32,000 nucleotides of DNA from Azotosporobacter soli (GTDB lineage: Bacteria; Bacillota; Negativicutes; SG130), in NCBI RefSeq assembly GCF_030542965.1, contig NZ_JAUAOA010000002.1, forward strand, positions 349,744 to 381,743. Reading direction: 5' to 3'. Shown here piece after piece: positions 7,785 to 29,300 of this stretch. Both the position numbers and the translations under genes were made by a program. Position 1 is the first letter of the stretch. Each line of letters opens with the position of its first letter. The notes under the pieces are model-generated. The model was not told where the DNA came from, did no database searches, and saw only the letters and a list, made by a program, of their open reading frames with translations.

Positions 7785-8513
7785 CTATCGATTATCCTGC
7801 AGCAATGCATTTACCGCCGCCAGGTCTTCCGGCGTATCGACGCCGATGAATTTTGCCTCGGTCGTCAGCACTTTGATGCGGTAGCCGTTCTCGAGCGCGC
7901 GCAATTGTTCGAGCGATTCGGTCTGTTCGAGCGGCGTCGGCGGCAGTGCAGCATAGCGCAGTAGAAATTCGCGCCGGTACGCATAGACGCCGACGTGTTT
8001 ATAAACAGGTTGCCCTGTCTTGTTCCGCGGGTACGGCAGTACCGAGCGGGAAAAGTACAGAGCGTAGTCATTCTGATCGGTAACGACTTTTACCGCATTC
8101 GGATTATCATATTCGTCTTCCGCCATCCGAGTCTTCATCGTTGCCATATTCAATTGCGGTTCCTTATGAAACGCGTCAGCCAACGCGTCAATAATCTCCG
8201 GCGCCAATAAAGGTTCATCGCCCTGAACATTAATCACGATATCAATGTCGCTGCGTCCTGCCAGCACTTCGGCCAAGCGGTCCGTACCGGTCGGATGATC
8301 GGGCGCAGTCATCACGACTCGTCCGCCAAACTTTTTTACCGCCGCTTCCACCAACGGATGATCGGTCGCGACCAGCACTTCATCCGGCGTATCTGCCAAA
8401 GAAGCTCGCTCGTAGACGTGTTGAATCATCGGTTTGCCGGCGATGTCCGCCAGCGGTTTTCCCGGCAAGCGCGTCGATGCGTAGCGCGCCGGAATCACGC
8501 AAAGAATTTTCAT
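7785..8513 (-). CDS. kdsB: 3-deoxy-manno-octulosonate cytidylyltransferase (CMP-Kdo synthetase) KdsB
   Basis: N-terminus MKILCVIPARYASTRLPGKPL and NVQGDEPL motif. It is 242 aa. Confidence 0.93.
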   Translation of the reverse strand: MKILCVIPARYASTRLPGKPLADIAGKPMIQHVYERASLADTPDEVLVATDHPLVEAAVKKFGGRVVMTAPDHPTGTDRLAEVLAGRSDIDIVINVQGDEPLLAPEIIDALADAFHKEPQLNMATMKTRMAEDEYDNPNAVKVVTDQNDYALYFSRSVLPYPRNKTGQPVYKHVGVYAYRREFLLRYAALPPTPLEQTESLEQLRALENGYRIKVLTTEAKFIGVDTPEDLAAVNALLQDNR

Positions 8514-8515
8514 CT

Positions 8516-9673
8516 TCAGCCTCTTTTCTTATCTTCAGCCATCCGGCCAATCATCGTCATGAATTCTGCATAGCCTTCCATGAAGCGAACCTCAATGCCA
8601 AGCACGTAAACCGGCAGCGGACGCTGCGAGTGGATGAATTCCGCCGGAATCTTAACCGCATCCTTTTCCGTTGTAATTAATGCGGTGGCGCCTTTGTCCA
8701 CAGCCTGCTCCATAATATACTGCATTTCCGCCATCGTATAGACATGATGATCCGGGTAACGGATCGCACAGACTTCCTTCGCTCCGATATCGGTGATCGT
8801 CTGTTCAAAGGAAGACGGATTGCCGATGCCGGAAAAAGCCATCACCGTCTTATCTTTAATCGCAGCCAGGTCGACCGGGTTATTGCGGAAATCACCATAC
8901 CAATCGGCCACTTCGACGAAGCACTTCGGTTTATGTACGCTTTCGACCACCAGCGCCGCCGGATTGTATTGTGTCGCAATTTCTCTAATATGGCCGCGCG
9001 CATCGTCGCTTGACTGATCGACCTTCGTCAGTAAAAACACCTGCGCGCGGTCCAGATTCTCGAGCGGTTCGCGCAACGTGCCGCGCGGCAAAATATAATT
9101 GTTGCCGAATACATTTAACGCGTCAATCAGCACAATGTCCAGATCGCGTTCCAGTTGCCAGTGCTGATACGCATCATCGAGAATGATGACGTCCGCATTA
9201 AAACGCGCCACCGCGTATTCACCGGTCTCGGTGCGGTTACGACCGATAATCACCGGTACGCCCGGCAAACTTTTGGCCAGTAGATACGCTTCGTCGCCCG
9301 CTTCGCTGACTGACATGTAGATCTTGCGCCCGTCCGAAACGACGCCGACATTGCCTTTCCAACCCGCACGATAACCGCGATTCAAAATGACGACGCGATA
9401 GCCGAGGTCACGAATAATCGAAGCCAAACGCTGCGCCGTCGGCGTCTTGCCGGTTCCGCCCACCGTGATATTTCCCAGACTGATCACCTTGCAGGCGAGG
9501 CGATGCCGTTTAAAAAAACCAATCCGATATAAGCACAGCGCCAGGCTTACGCTCCAGGCGTACAATACGGACATGCCATGCAAAATTCCCAGCAGCATTT
9601 TCGCTCCCGGGCCTGTCTGTTCACCATGTACCAATTGATATAGATAATTTTTTATCGCTTCCATCTGGCGCAT
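8516..9673 (-). CDS. lpxK: Tetraacyldisaccharide 4'-kinase LpxK
   Basis: P-loop SLGNITVGGTGKTP after an N-terminal membrane helix. The ILDDAYQH motif is also present. The ORF-track start 9676 is TTG, and the adjacent ATG at 9673 is used. Confidence 0.88.
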   Translation of the reverse strand: MRQMEAIKNYLYQLVHGEQTGPGAKMLLGILHGMSVLYAWSVSLALCLYRIGFFKRHRLACKVISLGNITVGGTGKTPTAQRLASIIRDLGYRVVILNRGYRAGWKGNVGVVSDGRKIYMSVSEAGDEAYLLAKSLPGVPVIIGRNRTETGEYAVARFNADVIILDDAYQHWQLERDLDIVLIDALNVFGNNYILPRGTLREPLENLDRAQVFLLTKVDQSSDDARGHIREIATQYNPAALVVESVHKPKCFVEVADWYGDFRNNPVDLAAIKDKTVMAFSGIGNPSSFEQTITDIGAKEVCAIRYPDHHVYTMAEMQYIMEQAVDKGATALITTEKDAVKIPAEFIHSQRPLPVYVLGIEVRFMEGYAEFMTMIGRMAEDKKRG

Positions 9674-18078: not shown

Positions 18079-18702
18079 CTACCAATTCAAAGTAACGCCG
18101 CCGTACCAGCGGTCATGCCCATAAGCAATTTGACTTTGCCAGCCATTTTGCCAGGCGGCTCGCAGACCGTACTGAAGGCCATGACCGTCAAAATCCGCAA
18201 CCGCGCGGAGCGTCGGCTGAGAGTTTGACGTCTTGCCTTTACTAAAGTGCGGCGGGTTAAGCACTTTTTCGATGCCGCCAAAGACGCCGTCAAAACGGCC
18301 GCTGCCCACGCCAAGGTGCAGGCGATAACCGCCTGGGAGAAATTTGCTGGCAACGCCATAGAGCGATCCGCCGCTTTCGGCGCCGATCGCCAGCCCCGGC
18401 GTCAAGACGGTTTCCGGCTGCAACGATAATTTCACACTGCTTTCTTCCTGCGTTGCCTGTCCCTGCGCAAAACGCCAGCCATGCGCCATTTCCCAGCCGC
18501 CGGGCAAGCCGACTGCCACGCTCTGTCTGCGCCAGCCATCACCCTGCCAAATGCCCAGATCGCCTTTCCCACTTGCCAGGACATCGGCCGAAGGCGATTC
18601 CAAGAGGCCGGTATCACCGTGCAGCGTCGGAGCGGTTTCGCCGCTCGCCGACCAAAAGCAGCAAGCGATCATTGCGCCGCATAGAATTGCTTTATACTTC
18701 AT
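18079..18702 (-). CDS. Small secreted beta-rich outer-membrane-type protein with YjbH-like motifs (function unknown)
   Basis: ATG at 18702 has AGGAG 5 nt upstream (the ORF track begins at 18723). Signal peptide is MKYKAILCGAMIACCFWSASG. GDTGLLESPSADVL and PGLAIGAESGGSLYGVASKF resemble the GGVGLLQTPTA and PQVAVGARDIGG...LVASK segments I recall from E. coli YjbH. The C-terminus ...WYGGVTLNW ends in an aromatic residue, as in OMP beta-signals. Confidence 0.5.
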   Translation of the reverse strand: MKYKAILCGAMIACCFWSASGETAPTLHGDTGLLESPSADVLASGKGDLGIWQGDGWRRQSVAVGLPGGWEMAHGWRFAQGQATQEESSVKLSLQPETVLTPGLAIGAESGGSLYGVASKFLPGGYRLHLGVGSGRFDGVFGGIEKVLNPPHFSKGKTSNSQPTLRAVADFDGHGLQYGLRAAWQNGWQSQIAYGHDRWYGGVTLNW

Positions 18703-18837
18703 CGTTGCTCCTTTATAAAACACTATTTTCGTTGGTCTTGCTAAAATTTAAGCGGAGTTCGTTAAAAAAATTTCAGCTGTCAAACCAAGCCTCTTCTCCC
18801 GCGCAGCTGACGCTTTTTTAGCAGACTCTTTTTATTA

Positions 18838-20335: not shown

Positions 20336-21271
20336 TTATTGTTTTGCCATTTCGGCTATTATGCTGTCCGTCATATCAAGCGCGCTAACATTAACGCCAA
20401 TAAAACTCTGATTAAACACGACAGTAATGTTCTGCTTCTCTGCCGCCTTTGCCGTCGCCGTCTCAATCTCTCGCCGCATCCGGTTTTCAAGATCGCTCAG
20501 TTCTTTCTCTAGTGCGCTCAATTCTTGCAGCGCAGGGCTACTTGTTTCTTTAGAAGCGGCCTCGGGCAGCGTCTGGGGCTGGCTCGTATTCATCCTATCG
20601 TTCTGCCGGTATGATGCGTCGATTTCCTGCCTCGCCTGTCGTTCCAGCGTCGCCAATTCAGCGACCATCTTATTTTGCAGCGTCTGTTCACGTGCCTTTA
20701 ATTTAACGGCGCGCTCCTGTTTCAGCGCATTTACGGCCTGCTCATTCGCCGCCGCTTCTTCGGCGCTAAGCGCAAGCGTATTTGCCCGCAGCGTCAGATT
20801 AAAGAAACGTGCTTCCATCTCTTTATCCAGCTCCGCCTGATATGCTTTGGCTTCGCTTTCACCCTGCACGGAAAGGTGGCGTCTTCTGTCTTCGATTTTG
20901 CGCTGCCAGTCCGCTGCCAAGAGCGCTGCTTTGGCTTCGCCGCTGCCATCAGGCAAAGACGTTGCACGCGGCGGAGCCTCGGCCAGAGCAGGAGGCAGGT
21001 CGCCAAGCGCTTGCGCCATCCAGCGTCGGCCCTCCAGCACTTGTTTTTTCTTCGCATAGCTTTCATAAAGAGGATGTGCCTGCATCAACGCCGCTAAATC
21101 GGCAACCCCGATCGCAGGCGGCGATGGTTTTTCCTGCTTTCCACCACAGCCGGCCAAAAGAAGAAGCGATAGCATTAGCAATAATAAGCAATGAAAAATT
21201 CGTCTTATCGCGATGTTCCTCTCCTCCTTTAGCAACGGCAGTCTAGAAAAGAGACCGGGCTGGTCTTTCAC
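20336..21271 (-). CDS. Extended OmpH-like coiled-coil lipoprotein (start codon uncertain)
   Basis: Lipoprotein signal IAIRRIFHCLLLLMLSLLLLAGC. OmpH-like ends (IGVADLAALMQAHPLYESY ... KQNITVVFNQSFIGVNVSALDMTDSIIAEMAKQ) flank a long Ala/Glu/Gln/Arg-rich helical insert. The ORF-track start 21271 is a GTG inside a hairpin loop. A strong AAGGAGGAGAGG SD lies at 21218-21229, with only ATC (21214) at proper spacing. Confidence 0.6.
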   Translation of the reverse strand: MKDQPGLFSRLPLLKEERNIAIRRIFHCLLLLMLSLLLLAGCGGKQEKPSPPAIGVADLAALMQAHPLYESYAKKKQVLEGRRWMAQALGDLPPALAEAPPRATSLPDGSGEAKAALLAADWQRKIEDRRRHLSVQGESEAKAYQAELDKEMEARFFNLTLRANTLALSAEEAAANEQAVNALKQERAVKLKAREQTLQNKMVAELATLERQARQEIDASYRQNDRMNTSQPQTLPEAASKETSSPALQELSALEKELSDLENRMRREIETATAKAAEKQNITVVFNQSFIGVNVSALDMTDSIIAEMAKQ

Positions 21272-21308: not shown

Positions 21309-21782
21309 TTATTTACCTGTGATCTTTTTCAGCACTTCTTCGGTGATATCTTGGCCGCCGTAAATGACATTGCTTTTATCAACAACCACAGTCAGGCCCT
21401 TCGCATCGGAAACGGCTTTGATCGCGCCATCGATCTTGTCATATACCGGCGCTACGAGTTCCTGGTGTTTTGCTTGCAACCGCTGTTGAATCTGTTGATA
21501 GTATTCTTGTTTTTCTTTGTCGTTCATCGCAGCGCTTTTTGCTTCAAAATCTTTTTTCGCTTGCTCAACTTCGGCTTTCATTGCTTCGTCTGCTTTAGCC
21601 ATATCCGGATGCTGCTGCACCAGCATTTGGTAGTTGACTACGCCAACGCTGGAATTACTACCGGCTGCTGCTGCATAACCTGTTCCGCTTTGCGAGAGGG
21701 CCAAGCCGACAATGCCTAAAACAAAAAACATCGCTACCGCTAACGACACCATTTTAACTTGCTTCTTATCAATTTTCATCAT
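21309..21782 (-). CDS. OmpH/Skp-family periplasmic chaperone
   Basis: ATG at 21782 has GAAGGAG 8 nt upstream (the ORF track extends to 21884 across the upstream stop). Signal peptide is MMKIDKKQVKMVSLAVAMFFVLGIVGLALSQSG. The rest follows the OmpH pattern (VGVVNYQMLVQQHPDMAKADEAMKAEVEQAKKDF ... KGLTVVVDKSNVIYGGQDITEEVLKKI). Confidence 0.8.
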   Translation of the reverse strand: MMKIDKKQVKMVSLAVAMFFVLGIVGLALSQSGTGYAAAAGSNSSVGVVNYQMLVQQHPDMAKADEAMKAEVEQAKKDFEAKSAAMNDKEKQEYYQQIQQRLQAKHQELVAPVYDKIDGAIKAVSDAKGLTVVVDKSNVIYGGQDITEEVLKKITGK

Positions 21783-21856: not shown

Positions 21857-23128
21857 TTATAAGACGCCAATCAGCCTGAGCCAATTTTCCTGCTTCGTGA
21901 ACACATATTCTACACTCAAAAATTCATGCAGCCGGTAGCGCAATCCCATTTCATAATCGCTGTTCTTAGGGTAGCGCTCTAAACGCAGTTGCCAACTATC
22001 GCTCAGATTTTGCCGCAGCCACCATTTCCCCTGCCTGTCGGAAAGCAGATATTGAAAACCAATATCCGTTTCCCGGCCAAAGTGATGGCTGACGCCGCCG
22101 CTGAATTTCCAAGTGAACGTAGTCGGATAAAAATCAACTTCGCCAAACAATTCCTCTTGTTTGTTCATCATTCGTCCGGCATGAAGACGCGCCGATGTGT
22201 TGTTCTCTTTGCGTCCCATATCGAGGTAGCCTTCAGCATTAATCTTGTAGCCGTCCGTTTTTGCCGTCAAATAAACATCGACCAGACTGCCTGGCTGAAG
22301 TTCGATCTGATACTGCAGATTATAACGCTTTGTCAGCGGCGCCTGCTCCGCTTTTTTCAACAGTCGCTGGACAAAATAATCGCGGTGCCGCGCAACCCAG
22401 CCCACCGGCAAGTTGCGCCAACTCGTAATTTCCTGCGCCAGTACCGGTTTCAAATCGAGCAGCAGCAAATTCGGCAGATTGGGCGAACGGATACTGATGC
22501 GGCTATCCTGCACCAATTGACCATTGGGAACCAACGTTATTTTGACGACGCTATGCGTTCCTGACGCAAGTTCTACTCCCAGCGTATATTCCGGCAATTG
22601 CAGCGCCGCACGATCCCTCAGCTCCGTCTTCGCAACTCCGATCGCCCAGTCTTCGCTGTCGACAGGCAGACCGACAAACAGATTACGCATGCCTTCCGTC
22701 AGTCCCGCCAAATCTTTCTCCAGCAAAGGTTGCAGTTCTTGCGGCAGGTTGCCGTAATCGAATTGCACATCAACTTGTTCGACGAGATCGCCCCACGGTG
22801 TGACCTGCATTCTGACCTGCATCTGACGTCCAGGTACAAGCTCAACCCGCTCGACTTCATAACCGAAGAGGACGCGCGTAAAGACTTCCTGCAAGACACG
22901 TTCATACTGTCCTTGCCGTTGCCTGATTTCTTCAACATTCTTGCCACTCAGCATTTGTCGCGTCACGGTAGCCAAGCTGTTTTCCAGCCGCGCTTGCAGC
23001 GCCGTCGCCAACGGATTGGCAGATGTCACCGCCACTTGAATATTCTCAACTCTCTCAATGCTTTGTCCCTGCACCGTTGGACAGCCAAACATTAGCAAGA
23101 GCAAGAGCACCATCAGCCGTTTAGTCAC
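21857..23128 (-). CDS. Uncharacterised secreted protein: three 90-residue alpha/beta repeat modules plus a beta-rich C-terminal domain
   Basis: GTG start has GGAGG 7 nt upstream. Signal sequence is MTKRLMVLLLLLMFGCPTVQG (possible lipobox FGC). The motif (V/I)EL-x-(P/S)G recurs at residues 95-100, 185-190 and 275-280. The last 130 aa or so contain alternating-pattern strands (FTWKFSGGVSHHF, DIGFQYLLS, WQLRLERY, YEMGLRYRL, LSVEYVF). Confidence 0.7.
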   Translation of the reverse strand: MTKRLMVLLLLLMFGCPTVQGQSIERVENIQVAVTSANPLATALQARLENSLATVTRQMLSGKNVEEIRQRQGQYERVLQEVFTRVLFGYEVERVELVPGRQMQVRMQVTPWGDLVEQVDVQFDYGNLPQELQPLLEKDLAGLTEGMRNLFVGLPVDSEDWAIGVAKTELRDRAALQLPEYTLGVELASGTHSVVKITLVPNGQLVQDSRISIRSPNLPNLLLLDLKPVLAQEITSWRNLPVGWVARHRDYFVQRLLKKAEQAPLTKRYNLQYQIELQPGSLVDVYLTAKTDGYKINAEGYLDMGRKENNTSARLHAGRMMNKQEELFGEVDFYPTTFTWKFSGGVSHHFGRETDIGFQYLLSDRQGKWWLRQNLSDSWQLRLERYPKNSDYEMGLRYRLHEFLSVEYVFTKQENWLRLIGVL

Positions 23129-23154
23129 GCTGCCGCCTCCATCTGCGGCCAGTC

Positions 23155-23180
23155 AAAAGCCAGGCCGTGGCCTGGCTTTT
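23155..23180 (-). terminator. Terminator-like hairpin after bamA
   Basis: The minus strand reads AAAAGCCAGGCC-ac-GGCCTGGCTTTT followed by G. It lies 12 nt after the bamA stop. The next gene's SD and GTG follow about 20 nt later. Confidence 0.5.
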
Positions 23181-23191
23181 CAACCGTTCGC

Positions 23192-25006
23192 CTAAAATTG
23201 TCCGCCAAAGCCAAATGTCGCCCGACCGCCCTTGCTGCCCCAGCCATAGTCAAGCTTGATCGGCCCCAGCATCGTATTCATCCGGATACCGCAGCCGATT
23301 GCGGTCTTCAGATCCGTCAACTGATAGCCTTCACCAGTCCATGCATTGCCGGCCTCGGCAAAGACGACGCCATGAATTTTCTTCATCAGCGGCATCCGGT
23401 ATTCGATTGTCGCGGCAAACATCTTGTTGCCTTTGAATTCATCATCCTTATAGGCGCGCAGACTCTCGCCGCCAAGCGCAAAGCGCTGGCTGTCCGGCAT
23501 CGATCCGGTCGCGTAGCCGAGCATGCCGCGTACCGCAATGATGTGGTCGCTGCCGACATCATAATATTTGCGGCCTTCTAAGCTGAACTTATTGAAATTA
23601 AAGTTGCCGCCCAAACCCTTGCCGGCGATCTCGACATTCGTCGTCAACATCGAACCGGTCGTCGCATTGAACACGTTGTCACGCGTATCAAAGACGCGGC
23701 TCAAAATCACGCTGCGCGTGGTGCCGAAGTTATCCTTCAAATATTGCTGATGCGCCGCCGTGCCATCGAGATAATTCTCACCCGACACATACTTGTTGTA
23801 GATGTCCTTGCGGCTTTTCAGCGTCACATAATAGCGGGTGTATTCGTTGACCGGACGTCCCAGCGTGATGTCCCAGCCCTTACGCTGCCGATCATAGGTG
23901 GAGCGGAAGTCGCCATTGTCGTTGTAATCGTCATAACGGTTCGTCATGTCATAAATACTGAAACTGAGTGATGTTTCCTTCTTGTCCATCCACGGATGCG
24001 TGTAACTGAATTCGTAATTGGCGCCGCTATTTGAATAACCGCCGATTTCCTTGTGGATCTTGACGCTGTCGCCGGTACCGCGGAAATTCTTGTCACCAAG
24101 CTCAATGATGCCGACCATGCCGTCAGAACTGCTGTAACCGGCGCCGATCGTGAACGTGCCTGTCTTTTGTTCGACGACCGTCGTCTCCATAACAACCGCA
24201 TTCGGCTCGCGTCCCGGAATCAGCTTCATATTCACATCTTCAAAGAAGCCGAGATTGTAGATTTTCTCCATGCTACGCTTGGCTTCTTTTGAATTGAACG
24301 GTTTGCCGACTTTATTCTTTATCTCGCGGGTAATGACGTGCTTCTTCGTTTTCTCATTGCCCTTAACCGTCAATTCTTCCAGCAGTCCTTCATTGATCGT
24401 GACGGTCAAGGTACCGTCTTTCGCCATATTGACGTCGCTGATCTTCGCCATGATATAGCCAGCGCTGCGATACACCTCTTCGATCGCCTTCGCATTTCCC
24501 GCCCACGTCTTCGAATTCAGCACCGCTCCGACCGGAACGGTGACTTGGCTTTCCAAGCGCGACGTCGTCACGACCGTGTTTCCTTTGATGACGACTTGTT
24601 TCAAAACAGGGTTTTCCATTACCCGGTAGACAACCTGGATTCCTTCCGGCACCTCTTTAAAATCGGCGGTCACGTCAAAAAAGTAACCCAAGTCATAAAT
24701 CGACTGCATATCCTGCTTGACGCGATCGGCAGTCAGTGCTTCGCCGACCTTCAATCGTATCGCATGCATGATCGTGTCGCTCGATACCGACATATTGCCT
24801 TCGACCGTCACGGACGTCATCTTTTTCCCGGTGATATTGATTGGTGCCGCCTGCACCGTGCTCTCCGTCGTAGGGGTCGCTACCGCTTCCGCCGCTCCCT
24901 GTTCCGGCGTCGCCGCATAACCGACCTGTCCTATCGTGCCCAGCGCCACCGCCATCCCCATTGCCAAATAAGCGGGCCGCCACCGATATTGTTTCCTCTT
25001 TTTCAT
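23192..25006 (-). CDS. bamA: Outer membrane protein assembly factor BamA (Omp85 family) with three POTRA domains
   Basis: A signal peptide and low-complexity linker precede three POTRA-like units, each opening with VTVEGN / VVIKGN / LTVKGN. The Omp85 barrel runs from TFTIGAGYSSSDG to a C-terminal ...GRATFGFGGQF ending in Phe. GAGGAGG SD is present. Confidence 0.92.
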   Translation of the reverse strand: MKKRKQYRWRPAYLAMGMAVALGTIGQVGYAATPEQGAAEAVATPTTESTVQAAPINITGKKMTSVTVEGNMSVSSDTIMHAIRLKVGEALTADRVKQDMQSIYDLGYFFDVTADFKEVPEGIQVVYRVMENPVLKQVVIKGNTVVTTSRLESQVTVPVGAVLNSKTWAGNAKAIEEVYRSAGYIMAKISDVNMAKDGTLTVTINEGLLEELTVKGNEKTKKHVITREIKNKVGKPFNSKEAKRSMEKIYNLGFFEDVNMKLIPGREPNAVVMETTVVEQKTGTFTIGAGYSSSDGMVGIIELGDKNFRGTGDSVKIHKEIGGYSNSGANYEFSYTHPWMDKKETSLSFSIYDMTNRYDDYNDNGDFRSTYDRQRKGWDITLGRPVNEYTRYYVTLKSRKDIYNKYVSGENYLDGTAAHQQYLKDNFGTTRSVILSRVFDTRDNVFNATTGSMLTTNVEIAGKGLGGNFNFNKFSLEGRKYYDVGSDHIIAVRGMLGYATGSMPDSQRFALGGESLRAYKDDEFKGNKMFAATIEYRMPLMKKIHGVVFAEAGNAWTGEGYQLTDLKTAIGCGIRMNTMLGPIKLDYGWGSKGGRATFGFGGQF

Positions 25007-25678: not shown

Positions 25679-26311
25679 TCACCAATGTTGCATCAGACGC
25701 GACAGCATGCCGCGTACTCTGCGCACGCCCTGCTTTTGCAGGCGGTAGACATGCGACAGGCTGACTTCGAGCAAATCCGCCATTTCCTGCGGCATGCGAT
25801 CTTCGAGATAGACGCCGCTCAGCACCGCCTGCTCTTTGGCCGGTAGGCGTGCCACCGCTTCTTGCAGTTGAAGCGCGAGAAAATTCGCTTCCGCCTGTAC
25901 CGCAATCGCAGGCTCCGCATCAACCAGACGATCCAACAGATTATAGCCCTGCATTTGCAGTTCATCCGCCGAAATGACTTGCTCCTGATCTTCATCCTTA
26001 AGGAAATCGATCATGCGACCGCGGATGCGATGAATCGCATACAGGCTGAAGGCAACACCGCGCAGATGGTTATAGCCGTCGACCGCTTCCAGTAAGCCAA
26101 GCGTCCCCTCCTGCACCGTATCAAACCAGACTTCTTCCGCCAAGTTCCATTTGCTGAGCGCCTTAAAAACCAGCGGCTGATAACGTTCAACGATCTCTGC
26201 GCGCGCAGCCTGGTCACCCTCTTCCTTATAACGGTGCCAAAGAAGGCGTTCTTCTTCAAATTCAAGCAGCTTGATGCTATTCAATTCTTTCAGATACTGA
26301 CTTCGCTTCAT
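25679..26311 (-). CDS. Sigma-70 family RNA polymerase sigma factor, group 3 FliA/SigD/WhiG-like
   Basis: Region 2 reads YQPLVFKALSKW...VQEGTLGLLEAVDGYNHLRGVAFSLYAIHRIRGRMIDFLKDED. The region 4 HTH reads LPAKEQAVLSGVYLEDRMPQEMADLLEVSLSHVYRLQKQGVRRVRGML. ATG at 26311 lies 14 nt after the tamB stop and has a GGGAG SD (the ORF-track TTG at 26329 is rejected). Confidence 0.85.
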   Translation of the reverse strand: MKRSQYLKELNSIKLLEFEEERLLWHRYKEEGDQAARAEIVERYQPLVFKALSKWNLAEEVWFDTVQEGTLGLLEAVDGYNHLRGVAFSLYAIHRIRGRMIDFLKDEDQEQVISADELQMQGYNLLDRLVDAEPAIAVQAEANFLALQLQEAVARLPAKEQAVLSGVYLEDRMPQEMADLLEVSLSHVYRLQKQGVRRVRGMLSRLMQHW

Positions 26312-26325
26312 ATTCTTCTCCCGCC

Positions 26326-29300
26326 TCAAAACTTGAACCTGGCTTCAAAACCAAGCCACTTGCGCTTTTGATCATCCGTTGCCGCGATGACGCTGATCCG
26401 TCGCGTCAGGTCATAGCGCAGCGCCGCTTCATATGCCGAATAGCCGATCGCCATATTATAACTCACGAACAGTCGGTCATTGATGTATTTACCCAGTTGC
26501 AAATTGTATACTTCGCGATTATCGGTCGTTGTACCTTCTTTTTCAAAATAAGTCTTGCGCAAAATTTCACCTTTTGCGCCCTGGTTGATGCGAAATTGAT
26601 CAAGGCCGAATGCATTTCGGACATTTCCTTCCAGCTGGCCAAGAAATTTGGCCTGCAGTCCCGCGTTCAACAAACCTGAAACTTCATCGAAGCCGCTTCG
26701 ATCACGTACGTCACCCGTGCGGCCTCCCGCATTCAGCACCGCCATAATTTGCGCCTGGCTTAGCGCCGGTTCCGACGTCAGCTTGAAATCAAGTGCGCTG
26801 ACCGGCCCATTCACCGTAAGATCGACCGCCAGTTGCGGCAATTTCGCCTGCGCCGCTAAGCGAATCGTCGGTTCGAACGCGAACGGACGGTTGAAGTCGA
26901 CCGACCCTTCAAAAATTTTGAAAGTGGTGCTCAGATAATTGATCGTGCCGTTCATCACGCGCACCCGCCCGCTCGAAGAAGGCTCTTTCAGCGTTCCGCC
27001 AAAATGAAGTCTCCCGCGCGCCAGGATGTCATAGAAGAGTGGATGGTATGCCCTGACCCGGTTGCCGACCGCGATATTCAGGTCGAGGCCCAGGTCAAGA
27101 TTACTGGCGCCGAATTCCGGTACGCCCGGAACGGTGATCGTGTCCTGCTCAAAGATCAAATCCCCCGCCAAAAGCGGTATGCCGTTTTGTCCGGGGCGCA
27201 GCGTCAATTCGCCGCGCACGGGTCCGGTGAAGTACGCATGACGAATCAGCGGCGCATTTAGCTTTAATGCCAGGTCATAATCGCGCCAATGCCAGTCCTG
27301 CCAGCGCAGACTTCCATCCAACGCGATTGTTCCCGTTCCCAGTTTCGCACTAAGTTGATTCACCTTGACCACATCGTCAGCGACAGTAACGTTCATTATA
27401 ATATTTTCCAGCGGATCCTTAAAACCGGCAAATTTAAGTTTTCCACCGTTTACGCTTATGGCACCATTCATCTTTGGCGCATGCAACGTTCCTGTGATCG
27501 CAATTTCTCCCTGCGTCGCACCATCACCCCATTCCACTACCTTGGGCACAAGCAGCGGCAGAATACTAAGATTAGCATTGTCGAGTCGGCAACGCAAATC
27601 CATTTCAGATCCATTATCAGTGCCGCTACGGCCTTTCGGCGTCAATGCCGCCAACGGGATATTGCCGTAGGCGCTGGCCCGGTAAATTCCTTTGCGCAGC
27701 AAAACCTGATTCACTTGGATATTGCCTTTTTCCAAAATCAACAATCCATACAGCGAATCAAAAGTGGCTTCTTTGACGCCGCCGTCATTAATTTCAACCG
27801 ACATCGCTGCCTGTGGTTCTTGCGTCGTACCATTAACCTGCGCCGCAAATTGCAGCTTTCCTTTCAAATCCCAATCGCTTCCCAATAGCGCCGTTATGAT
27901 CCCTGCATCAATTCCTTGCCCGCCAATTTCAAGATTCAAAGGGCCATCAATCGCAGCGGTTCCTTGCGCTACAAGCGTCCCATTTCCTTGATGTGCTGTT
28001 AATTGGTTGATTTTCAAGACATTGTTTTCTAACGCCAGATTCAAGTCCACGCTCTCCAACGGATAATTTCGAATGCTGCCGTTTGTTAACTGACCGTCCA
28101 CCCAGACATCCGGTTGTTTGGCATGACCTGCGACACGAATCTCACCGGAAAGCTTACCTCGCAAATCGCGGTTCGACAATTGAAAAATCGGCATAATTCG
28201 TTCCAGTGTCAAATTTTTCAACTGTAAGCTGCCAAAAACGCTCTGATCTTTAAAATCGATTCCTCCGGTAAATACGCCCTGGCCTTCGCCCTGTTGAAAC
28301 GAAGCATCTGTAATATCCAGTTCATCATCAACAAATTTCATCTTGCCGCGTATATTCTGGATTGTTTCTTTGTCCAGCTGCAATCGCTCGGTTTGAAATT
28401 CTCCAGCAAATATTGGTTGCGCTGCAGTCCCTGTCAGCGTTCCACTGCAGGTTCCAATGCCGCTCACCGGATACGGATATTGAAACGGCAGACGGGCAAA
28501 ATCAAGATTATCCGCCGCTACCGCCAGATTAAGCTCTGCGCCGCGCGTCGTCTGACCGCTGACCCGGATCCGGGTGTTCAACGAGTCGATTTCGACGCCT
28601 TTCAGTTGCAGCTCCTGACCGCTAATTGAATAATCCCCTTCCGCACGTGCCACCAGGCGACCGCGAAAACTACCGTCACTCAGCTTGACGTGGCCACTGC
28701 CGTCGGGTCTCGCACGACTGCCGTGCAAAACGATCTCATTATCAATATTGCCGGTGATTTCTTCGCCCGGCAATAAAAACTTCACCACATTTTCCGCTCT
28801 TGCCTGTCGGCTGACAACGCGTAAATTCAACGGCCCATCGGCCGCGTAGCTGATTCGTCCGTCAACTCGGTGTTCCGCTGTCTTGTCACGTAGCAGCCAG
28901 TTATCAAGAGTCACGCCCTGCGCATCAAGGCGCAGTCCGCCCGTCGCCAATTGATACGGCTGCTTAAGCGCCGTACCGTCGTGCAGTGCGGCCGTTCCCG
29001 TCAACTGCCATTCCGGCAGACGACCGCTCAAGCGGCCGCTGAACGTCCCGTTGCCGCTGATTTCCGGGGTAAATCGCTCAAGCGGCAACTGGTTTCCCGC
29101 TAGCGCCATATCGATATTCTGCCGAGAAATCCGTCCCTGCCCGGTCACGCTGCCTTCGCCGATCTGCAGCGCCAACGCGTCCACTTCAACGTCATCACTA
29201 TTGCCCTGAAACGAAGACTGCAGCGCGTCGATTCGGATCCCCTGCAGAGAGATATCCTTCGCCCGCAAGGAAAGCGCATAACGCTGCGTCTTGCTGTCGA

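Follow-up and report, generated by a model that had tools for sequence, protein, structure and literature searches.

A probable SonA orthologue in the bamA cluster of Azotosporobacter soli and its joint inheritance with SonB and a sigma factor

A SonA-like protein encoded next to bamA

To our knowledge, diderm Firmicutes have neither BamB-E, TamA nor LptE, and no Lol pathway. SonA is among the few lineage-specific proteins of the core bamA operon and is relevant to how these bacteria build their outer membrane (OM). Beskrovnaya et al. (Nat Commun 2026;17:2756; PMC13018214) gave SonA and SonB their names in February 2026, describing both as conserved proteins encoded in the bamA operon of Negativicutes, among them Acetonema longum. 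A. longum SonA (UniProt F7NM22; SonB is F7NM24) has 426 amino acids, a 22-residue Sec signal, three POTRA domains and a 10-stranded barrel; sonB, bamA, sonA and skp1 are syntenic across the 36 species examined, the sonA gene invariably lying between bamA and skp1, and Veillonella parvula and Acidaminococcus fermentans have neither Son gene (PMC13018214). Here we analyse a gene that follows bamA in a 32,000-nucleotide stretch of DNA from Azotosporobacter soli (contig NZ_JAUAOA010000002.1, positions 349,744 to 381,743; "the window"). An initial annotation, made from the window sequence, had described its product as a secreted protein that might be a component of the β-barrel assembly machinery (BAM) or a small Omp85-related protein of a new architecture.

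The window protein resembles A. longum SonA in length (423 against 426 residues), in its 22-residue signal, in having three POTRA-like domains and a 10-stranded barrel, and in the site of its gene, flanked by bamA and skp1 in a cluster where sonB precedes bamA. The difference is one of genus; the architecture is alike throughout. For a direct comparison we used the homologue encoded in genome G051 of the same class, which counts 426 amino acids from its second Met and has a 22-residue signal, in exact agreement with the published construct 23-426; the BamA beside it has 599 amino acids from its ATG and a 29-residue signal, which matches construct 30-599 equally well (construct boundaries from PMC13018214). 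The window protein shares 35 % identity over 400 residues (E 4e-92) with this probable A. longum SonA, and thereby passes the homology cut-off of Beskrovnaya et al. (E 1e-30, 25 % identity; PMC13018214). Because of its architecture, its gene order and an identity beyond that cut-off, we file the gene as a SonA orthologue. It very probably encodes a Sec-exported protein with three POTRA-fold domains and a 10-stranded OM barrel. The idea of a new architecture thus falls: the family, its architecture and its synteny are already known from the publication of February 2026, and the window gene adds nothing architectural to that description.

The gene order of the window is tamB, the sigma factor gene, sonB, bamA, sonA, skp1, skp2, skp3 and lpxD. 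We read the order in 80 related loci from named genomes, as far as each contig reaches, and found it kept in all 80, with sonA adjacent to bamA in every one; sonB separates the sigma gene from bamA in 71/71 loci. The genera represented include Sporomusa, Pelosinus, Lucifera, Anaerospora, Dendrosporobacter, Megasphaera, Phascolarctobacterium, Selenomonas, Anaerovibrio and Schwartzia.

Repeat modules, predicted fold and sequence relations

Three readings of the initial annotation concern the build of the protein: modules that recur with an exact 90-residue period, the β-α-α-β-β element order of POTRA domains within each of them, and a C-terminal part too short for a 16-stranded Omp85 barrel. All of them are borne out. 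The motif (V/I)EL-x-(P/S)G occurs as VELVPG (residues 95-100), VELASG (185-190) and IELQPG (275-280), with a period of exactly 90 residues. Pairwise alignments of the modules were weak against shuffled sequences (z = 4.0, 0.6 and 4.6). In profile-profile comparisons (hhalign), for which module and barrel profiles were built from 82 orthologues, modules A and B aligned with a probability of 93 % (E 3e-7; positions 2-89 against 1-89, in register), B and C with 92 % (E 6e-7), and A and C with 71 %. Since the profiles align in register, we consider the 90-residue repeats real and homologous.

AlphaFold2 modelled SonA from a 34-sequence alignment with a predicted local distance difference test (pLDDT) score of 88.3, and a second model of residues 23-292 alone, with the barrel left off, scored 90.0. 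By DSSP assignment, the model has a unit of one strand, two helices (partly kinked) and a β-hairpin, present three times (residues 29-111, 118-201 and 208-291); in the first unit these are strand 29-36, helices 42-60 and 65-86, and hairpin 90-98/102-111. The β-α-α-β-β order with a three-stranded sheet and two helices, by which the POTRA fold is recognized, is seen in all three modules of the predicted models. The C-terminal part is modelled as a small barrel with strands 296-304, 311-320, 325-334, 339-350, 354-361, 366-374, 379-386, 391-399, 404-410 and 415-422. A Foldseek search of the PDB with the whole model returned Omp85-family structures (BamA, TamA, Toc75) as all of the best 50 matches, at E ~1e-10. 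With residues 23-292 alone, the best 50 of 68 significant matches were all POTRA arrays (Omp85, BamA, TamA, Toc75), the top one being POTRA1-3 of Anabaena Omp85 (3mc8, E 1.2e-7, probability 1.00).

At the level of sequence the comparison came out otherwise. On SonA, Pfam gave a single sub-threshold and weak match, OMP_b-brl (E 0.05), NCBIfam gave none, and neither sequence nor profile searches of the PDB found anything; no POTRA profile of Pfam or NCBIfam (PF07244 and relatives) matched at E<=1. The comparison with BamA was run two ways, with the window BamA alone and with a 78-sequence BamA profile. The SonA modules matched the BamA POTRA1-3 profiles with hhalign probabilities of at most 1.1 %, the barrel profile matched that of the BamA barrel with 0.4 % and had no PF01103 match, and SonA against its cognate BamA, whole or by domain, stayed at 4 % or less. 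The three BamA POTRAs, used as a control, recover one another at 95-98 %. At the sequence level, the proposal of a relation to Omp85 is not upheld by these values. SonA resembles BamA/Omp85 (PF01103 plus PF07244), the family of its best Foldseek matches, in the N-terminal tandem of periplasmic POTRA folds and the C-terminal OM barrel. It differs in a barrel of 10 strands rather than 16, in a module length of 90 rather than about 75 residues, and in matching no Omp85 or POTRA profile.

Joint inheritance of SonA, SonB and the cluster sigma factor

We searched 401 Negativicutes genomes alike for SonA, SonB and the sigma factor of the cluster. SonA was found in 311/401, one copy each, and in 94 of 110 genera, with one genus at 0/40. 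SonB (E<=1e-10) and the sigma factor (E<=1e-40, always one match per genome) were each found in 308/401. Tallies for the three proteins are identical in families f6 (0/3) and f24 (20/61) and in genus g24 (0/40). SonA and the sigma factor also agree in f13 (80/99) and f18 (73/93), where SonB counts 83/99, three of them weak, and 79/93, six of them weak. Ten further SonB matches were marginal (4e-6 to 3e-4), and every one lies in a SonA-negative genome. The discordant genomes identified (G031, G070, G076, G082 and G355) are all drafts, in 90-450 contigs and 74-95 % complete. Across these genomes, then, SonA, SonB and the cluster sigma factor are kept or lost together.

The loss could be seen at the locus in four genomes, drawn from three families, that have no SonA. 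There tamB is the direct neighbour of bamA, which is followed at once by skp1; the trio of sigma gene, sonB and sonA is gone as a whole, and TamB, BamA and Skp are retained in all four. Because the trio is inherited jointly and BamA, TamB and Skp stay behind, SonA appears to be linked less to an obligate partnership with BamA or TamB than to the pair of sigma factor and SonB.

An exhaustive hidden Markov model search of 1.84 billion representative proteins gave 389 SonA clusters at E<=1e-3, of which 168 also passed E<=1e-30; among the matches listed, full-length members are almost all about 390-470 amino acids long and the remainder are fragments. Members at 27-29 % identity belong to a second GTDB phylum, with contigs of 67-72 % GC (loci L087, at 8001-9320, L089 and L091-L096), where 54 of the 94 species have a SonA match. 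The order there is S55 peptidase, tamB, sigma, sonB-like, bamA, sonA, three skp and lpxD, followed further on by lpxC, fabZ, lpxA and lpxI, the S55 (SpoIVB-like) peptidase gene lying upstream of tamB. That two phyla share the tamB-sigma-sonB-bamA-sonA-skp block suggests that it is an old module.

These patterns narrow the hypotheses on what SonA does, and the lead they give is a module for regulation or sensing, as opposed to a fixed subunit of BAM or of the translocation and assembly module (TAM). SonB of the window begins with about 60 hydrophilic, helical residues, followed by basic residues and then a single transmembrane helix; a Pro/Ala-rich linker leads on to a C-terminal helix that is conserved (...EMQ.LVR.A...LR). 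Its sequence contains neither a signal peptide nor a lipobox. As read from the sequence, this layout fits a single-pass, anti-sigma-like protein of the inner membrane, not an OM lipoprotein. For SonA we predict with high confidence that the Sec signal peptide exports it, that the 10-stranded C-terminal barrel anchors it in the OM and that the three tandem POTRA-fold domains sit in the periplasm. Under the mechanism that we propose, SonB would span the inner membrane once, with its helical N-terminal part in the cytoplasm, a long Pro/Ala linker and the conserved C-terminal helix in the periplasm. The POTRA array of SonA may bind unfolded outer-membrane proteins (OMPs), the SonB tail, or both, and the state of OMP assembly could in this way be coupled to the cluster sigma factor. 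SonA would then serve as the OM arm of a unit of three genes, those for the sigma factor, SonB and SonA itself, and would not be bound to BamA or TamB as an obligate subunit; we make this proposal tentatively and rate it at somewhat below even. A chaperone or hand-over role of SonA towards BamA is compatible with such a unit. The stricter version, in which SonA is the OM sensor and SonB the anti-sigma factor of a trans-envelope signalling unit that tunes the transcription of OM biogenesis genes to the load of unfolded OMPs, we consider unlikely; if true, diderm Firmicutes, along with a second phylum of high GC, would have a sensing unit that does the work of sigma-E/RseA with unrelated components. 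The arrangement recalls FecA-FecR-FecI and RseA/sigma-E in that a sigma factor, a single-pass inner-membrane protein and an OM protein are inherited as a unit, but the likeness is an analogy only, with no homology and with no TonB-dependent transducer in the SonA trio. Identity and mechanism combined, this is the best explanation that we can offer, and as a whole we judge it likely.

Several points weigh against this interpretation. The link to A. longum rests on the matched lengths and signal boundaries in G051, which we take to be A. longum or a close relative, not on an accession. The POTRA likeness of SonA, as predicted from the models, is one of fold only, with no similarity in sequence or profile to POTRA or Omp85, and whole-array TM-scores are low (0.2-0.3), which we attribute to differing inter-domain angles. 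Adjacent genes can be removed by a single deletion, the coupling of the trio rests on phyletic co-occurrence, and related genomes are not independent. Finally, the sigma factor of the cluster goes unmentioned in the 2026 paper, which calls SonB a putative OM lipoprotein, yet reports a predicted transmembrane helix in it (PMC13018214).

The model of the 2026 paper itself is that of a pioneer or auxiliary insertase, in which SonA, as a self-inserting mini-BamA, enters a protein-free membrane unaided and helps BamA to start OMP assembly, for instance as a germinating spore rebuilds its OM. It accords with the spontaneous insertion of A. longum SonA and BamA into liposomes at 30 C and with their co-expression and up-regulation during germination (PMC13018214), as well as with the POTRA-plus-barrel architecture and the position of the gene between bamA and skp. 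We find it doubtful nonetheless: small barrels commonly insert into liposomes spontaneously, the SonA barrel has ten strands, none of the sequence features of Omp85 and no demonstrated lateral-gate activity, whole genera manage with BamA and no SonA, and the presence of SonA is not matched to the ability to sporulate (PMC13018214). A relation to BamA of another kind, in which SonA is a stable, lineage-specific BAM subunit that replaces BamB-E, was one of the proposals of the initial annotation. Both the adjacency of sonA and bamA, which are probably co-transcribed, and the absence of BamB-E from diderm Firmicutes speak for it. However, an anti-BamA cross-linking co-immunoprecipitation in A. 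longum recovered a porin and an S55 peptidase only, and not SonA (PMC13018214), SonA is dispensable in several lineages, and BamA persists in those that have no SonA; a BAM subunit is very unlikely on this evidence.

With no TamA in these genomes and tamB in the same cluster, SonA might instead be a TamA-like partner, its POTRA array docking the C-terminus of TamB and anchoring a bridge across the envelope through which lipids or proteins would be transported, a possibility raised in the 2026 paper (PMC13018214). TamA also has three POTRA domains, and Foldseek matches of SonA include TamA and its POTRA crystal structure (8us1, 8us3, 4qay). The two differ in that the TamA barrel has 16 strands against 10 and that there is no relation in sequence. 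TamB is kept beside bamA in 4/4 SonA-less loci examined, SonA tracks SonB and the sigma factor instead, and BamA is the proposed TamB partner where TamA is absent (PMC5007114), all of which make a TamA-like role quite unlikely. That SonA is an ordinary structural OMP (a porin, a tether or an adhesin anchor) with no role in biogenesis and with N-terminal domains that merely look like POTRAs would be in line with the lack of similarity to any POTRA or Omp85 profile. It is nevertheless a highly improbable explanation, given that the best 50 of the 68 significant N-terminal Foldseek matches are all POTRA arrays, that sonA holds its place inside an OM-biogenesis operon across two phyla, and that a 10-stranded barrel with conserved charged residues makes a poor porin candidate.

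Features of the sonA locus and its neighbours

The features of the locus are collected in Table 1. The sonA gene is single-copy in its own genome, and its start codon, as read from the sequence, is GTG. The gap from the bamA stop to sonA is 63 nucleotides and contains a stem-loop with a perfect 10-bp stem and a short run of T, at which a simple terminator scan made no call. This hairpin could act within the operon as an attenuator or a weak terminator, or it could stabilise the mRNA. Co-transcription of bamA and sonA is likely the rule, because the two genes overlap by 28 nucleotides in high-GC relatives, and the effect of the hairpin on it may be no more than modulation. The initial annotation had counted three POTRA units in the adjacent BamA, as does Pfam.

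Table 1. Features of the sonA locus in the window
Feature	Position	Strand	Evidence or remarks
sonA coding sequence	21857..23128	-	423 amino acids, stop at 21857-21859; open reading frame list and translation; 74 full-length homologues
Shine-Dalgarno GGAGG	23136..23140	-	7 nucleotides 5' of the sonA GTG; read from sequence
Stem-loop AAAAGCCAGG..CCTGGCTTTT	23155..23180	-	between bamA stop and sonA ribosome-binding site; read from sequence
Signal peptide, residues 1-22 (MTKRLMVLLLLLMFGCPTVQGQ)	23063..23128	-	n/h/c regions read from sequence
POTRA-like module 1, residues 23-112	22793..23062	-	AlphaFold2, hhalign, Foldseek
POTRA-like module 2, residues 113-202	22523..22792	-	conserved GLPVD..DW and LPEF motifs; AlphaFold2, hhalign, Foldseek
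POTRA-like module 3, residues 203-292	22253..22522	-	conserved RS..PN.LL and LPV.(F/W)V.RH; AlphaFold2, hhalign, Foldseek
Ten-stranded β-barrel (predicted), residues 293-423	21860..22252	-	AlphaFold2 DSSP, pLDDT 82-95; weak, sub-threshold Pfam OMP_b-brl match (E 0.05)
bamA, 604 amino acids, three POTRA + Omp85 barrel	23192..25006	-	PF01103 1.4e-45, PF07244 x3, TIGR03303; immediately upstream of sonA
sonB orthologue, 172 amino acids	25032..25550	-	synteny, alignment, co-distribution with sonA
Small sigma-70-family factor	25679..26329	-	between tamB and sonB; synteny, alignment; Sigma70_r2 on high-GC orthologue (Pfam)
skp1 (OmpH family)	21309..21782	-	Pfam OmpH 5e-19; synteny; immediately downstream of sonA

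In the AlphaFold2 model the signal region of SonA is a helix (residues 3-14) followed by a low-pLDDT tail (16-21). Residues 13-16 (MFGC) could be taken for a lipobox, but Cys16 shows no conservation across the family alignment, and SonA as a lipoprotein was ruled out on this ground. With no conserved lipobox Cys and no NCBIfam or Pfam profile match, there is also no sign in SonA of membership in a BamB-E type. The protein ends in ...WLRLIGVL and not in an aromatic residue, as the initial annotation had remarked; the family consensus in the alignment is WLRLIGNL, some members end in F, and the non-aromatic end is a minor variant.

Downstream of sonA, the skp1 start is probably the ATG at 21782, while the listed open reading frame begins at a TTG (21884) and overlaps the end of sonA. 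A promoter-like sequence, TTGAAT-17-TATAAT with an upstream TG, lies on the minus strand at 21851-21823, in the sonA-skp1 gap. The middle Skp paralogue (20336-21271, minus strand, 311 amino acids) has a long coiled-coil and a lipoprotein-type signal (LLAGC); its OmpH match is sub-threshold (E 6e-4), and tblastn at E<=1e-5 finds it in some of the related loci only. Between lpxD and an acyltransferase gene, positions 18079-18723 (minus strand) encode a Gly/Trp-rich secreted protein of 214 amino acids, which has a weak N-terminal YjbH-like Pfam match (E 0.003), ends in ...GVTLNW and is probably a small OMP.

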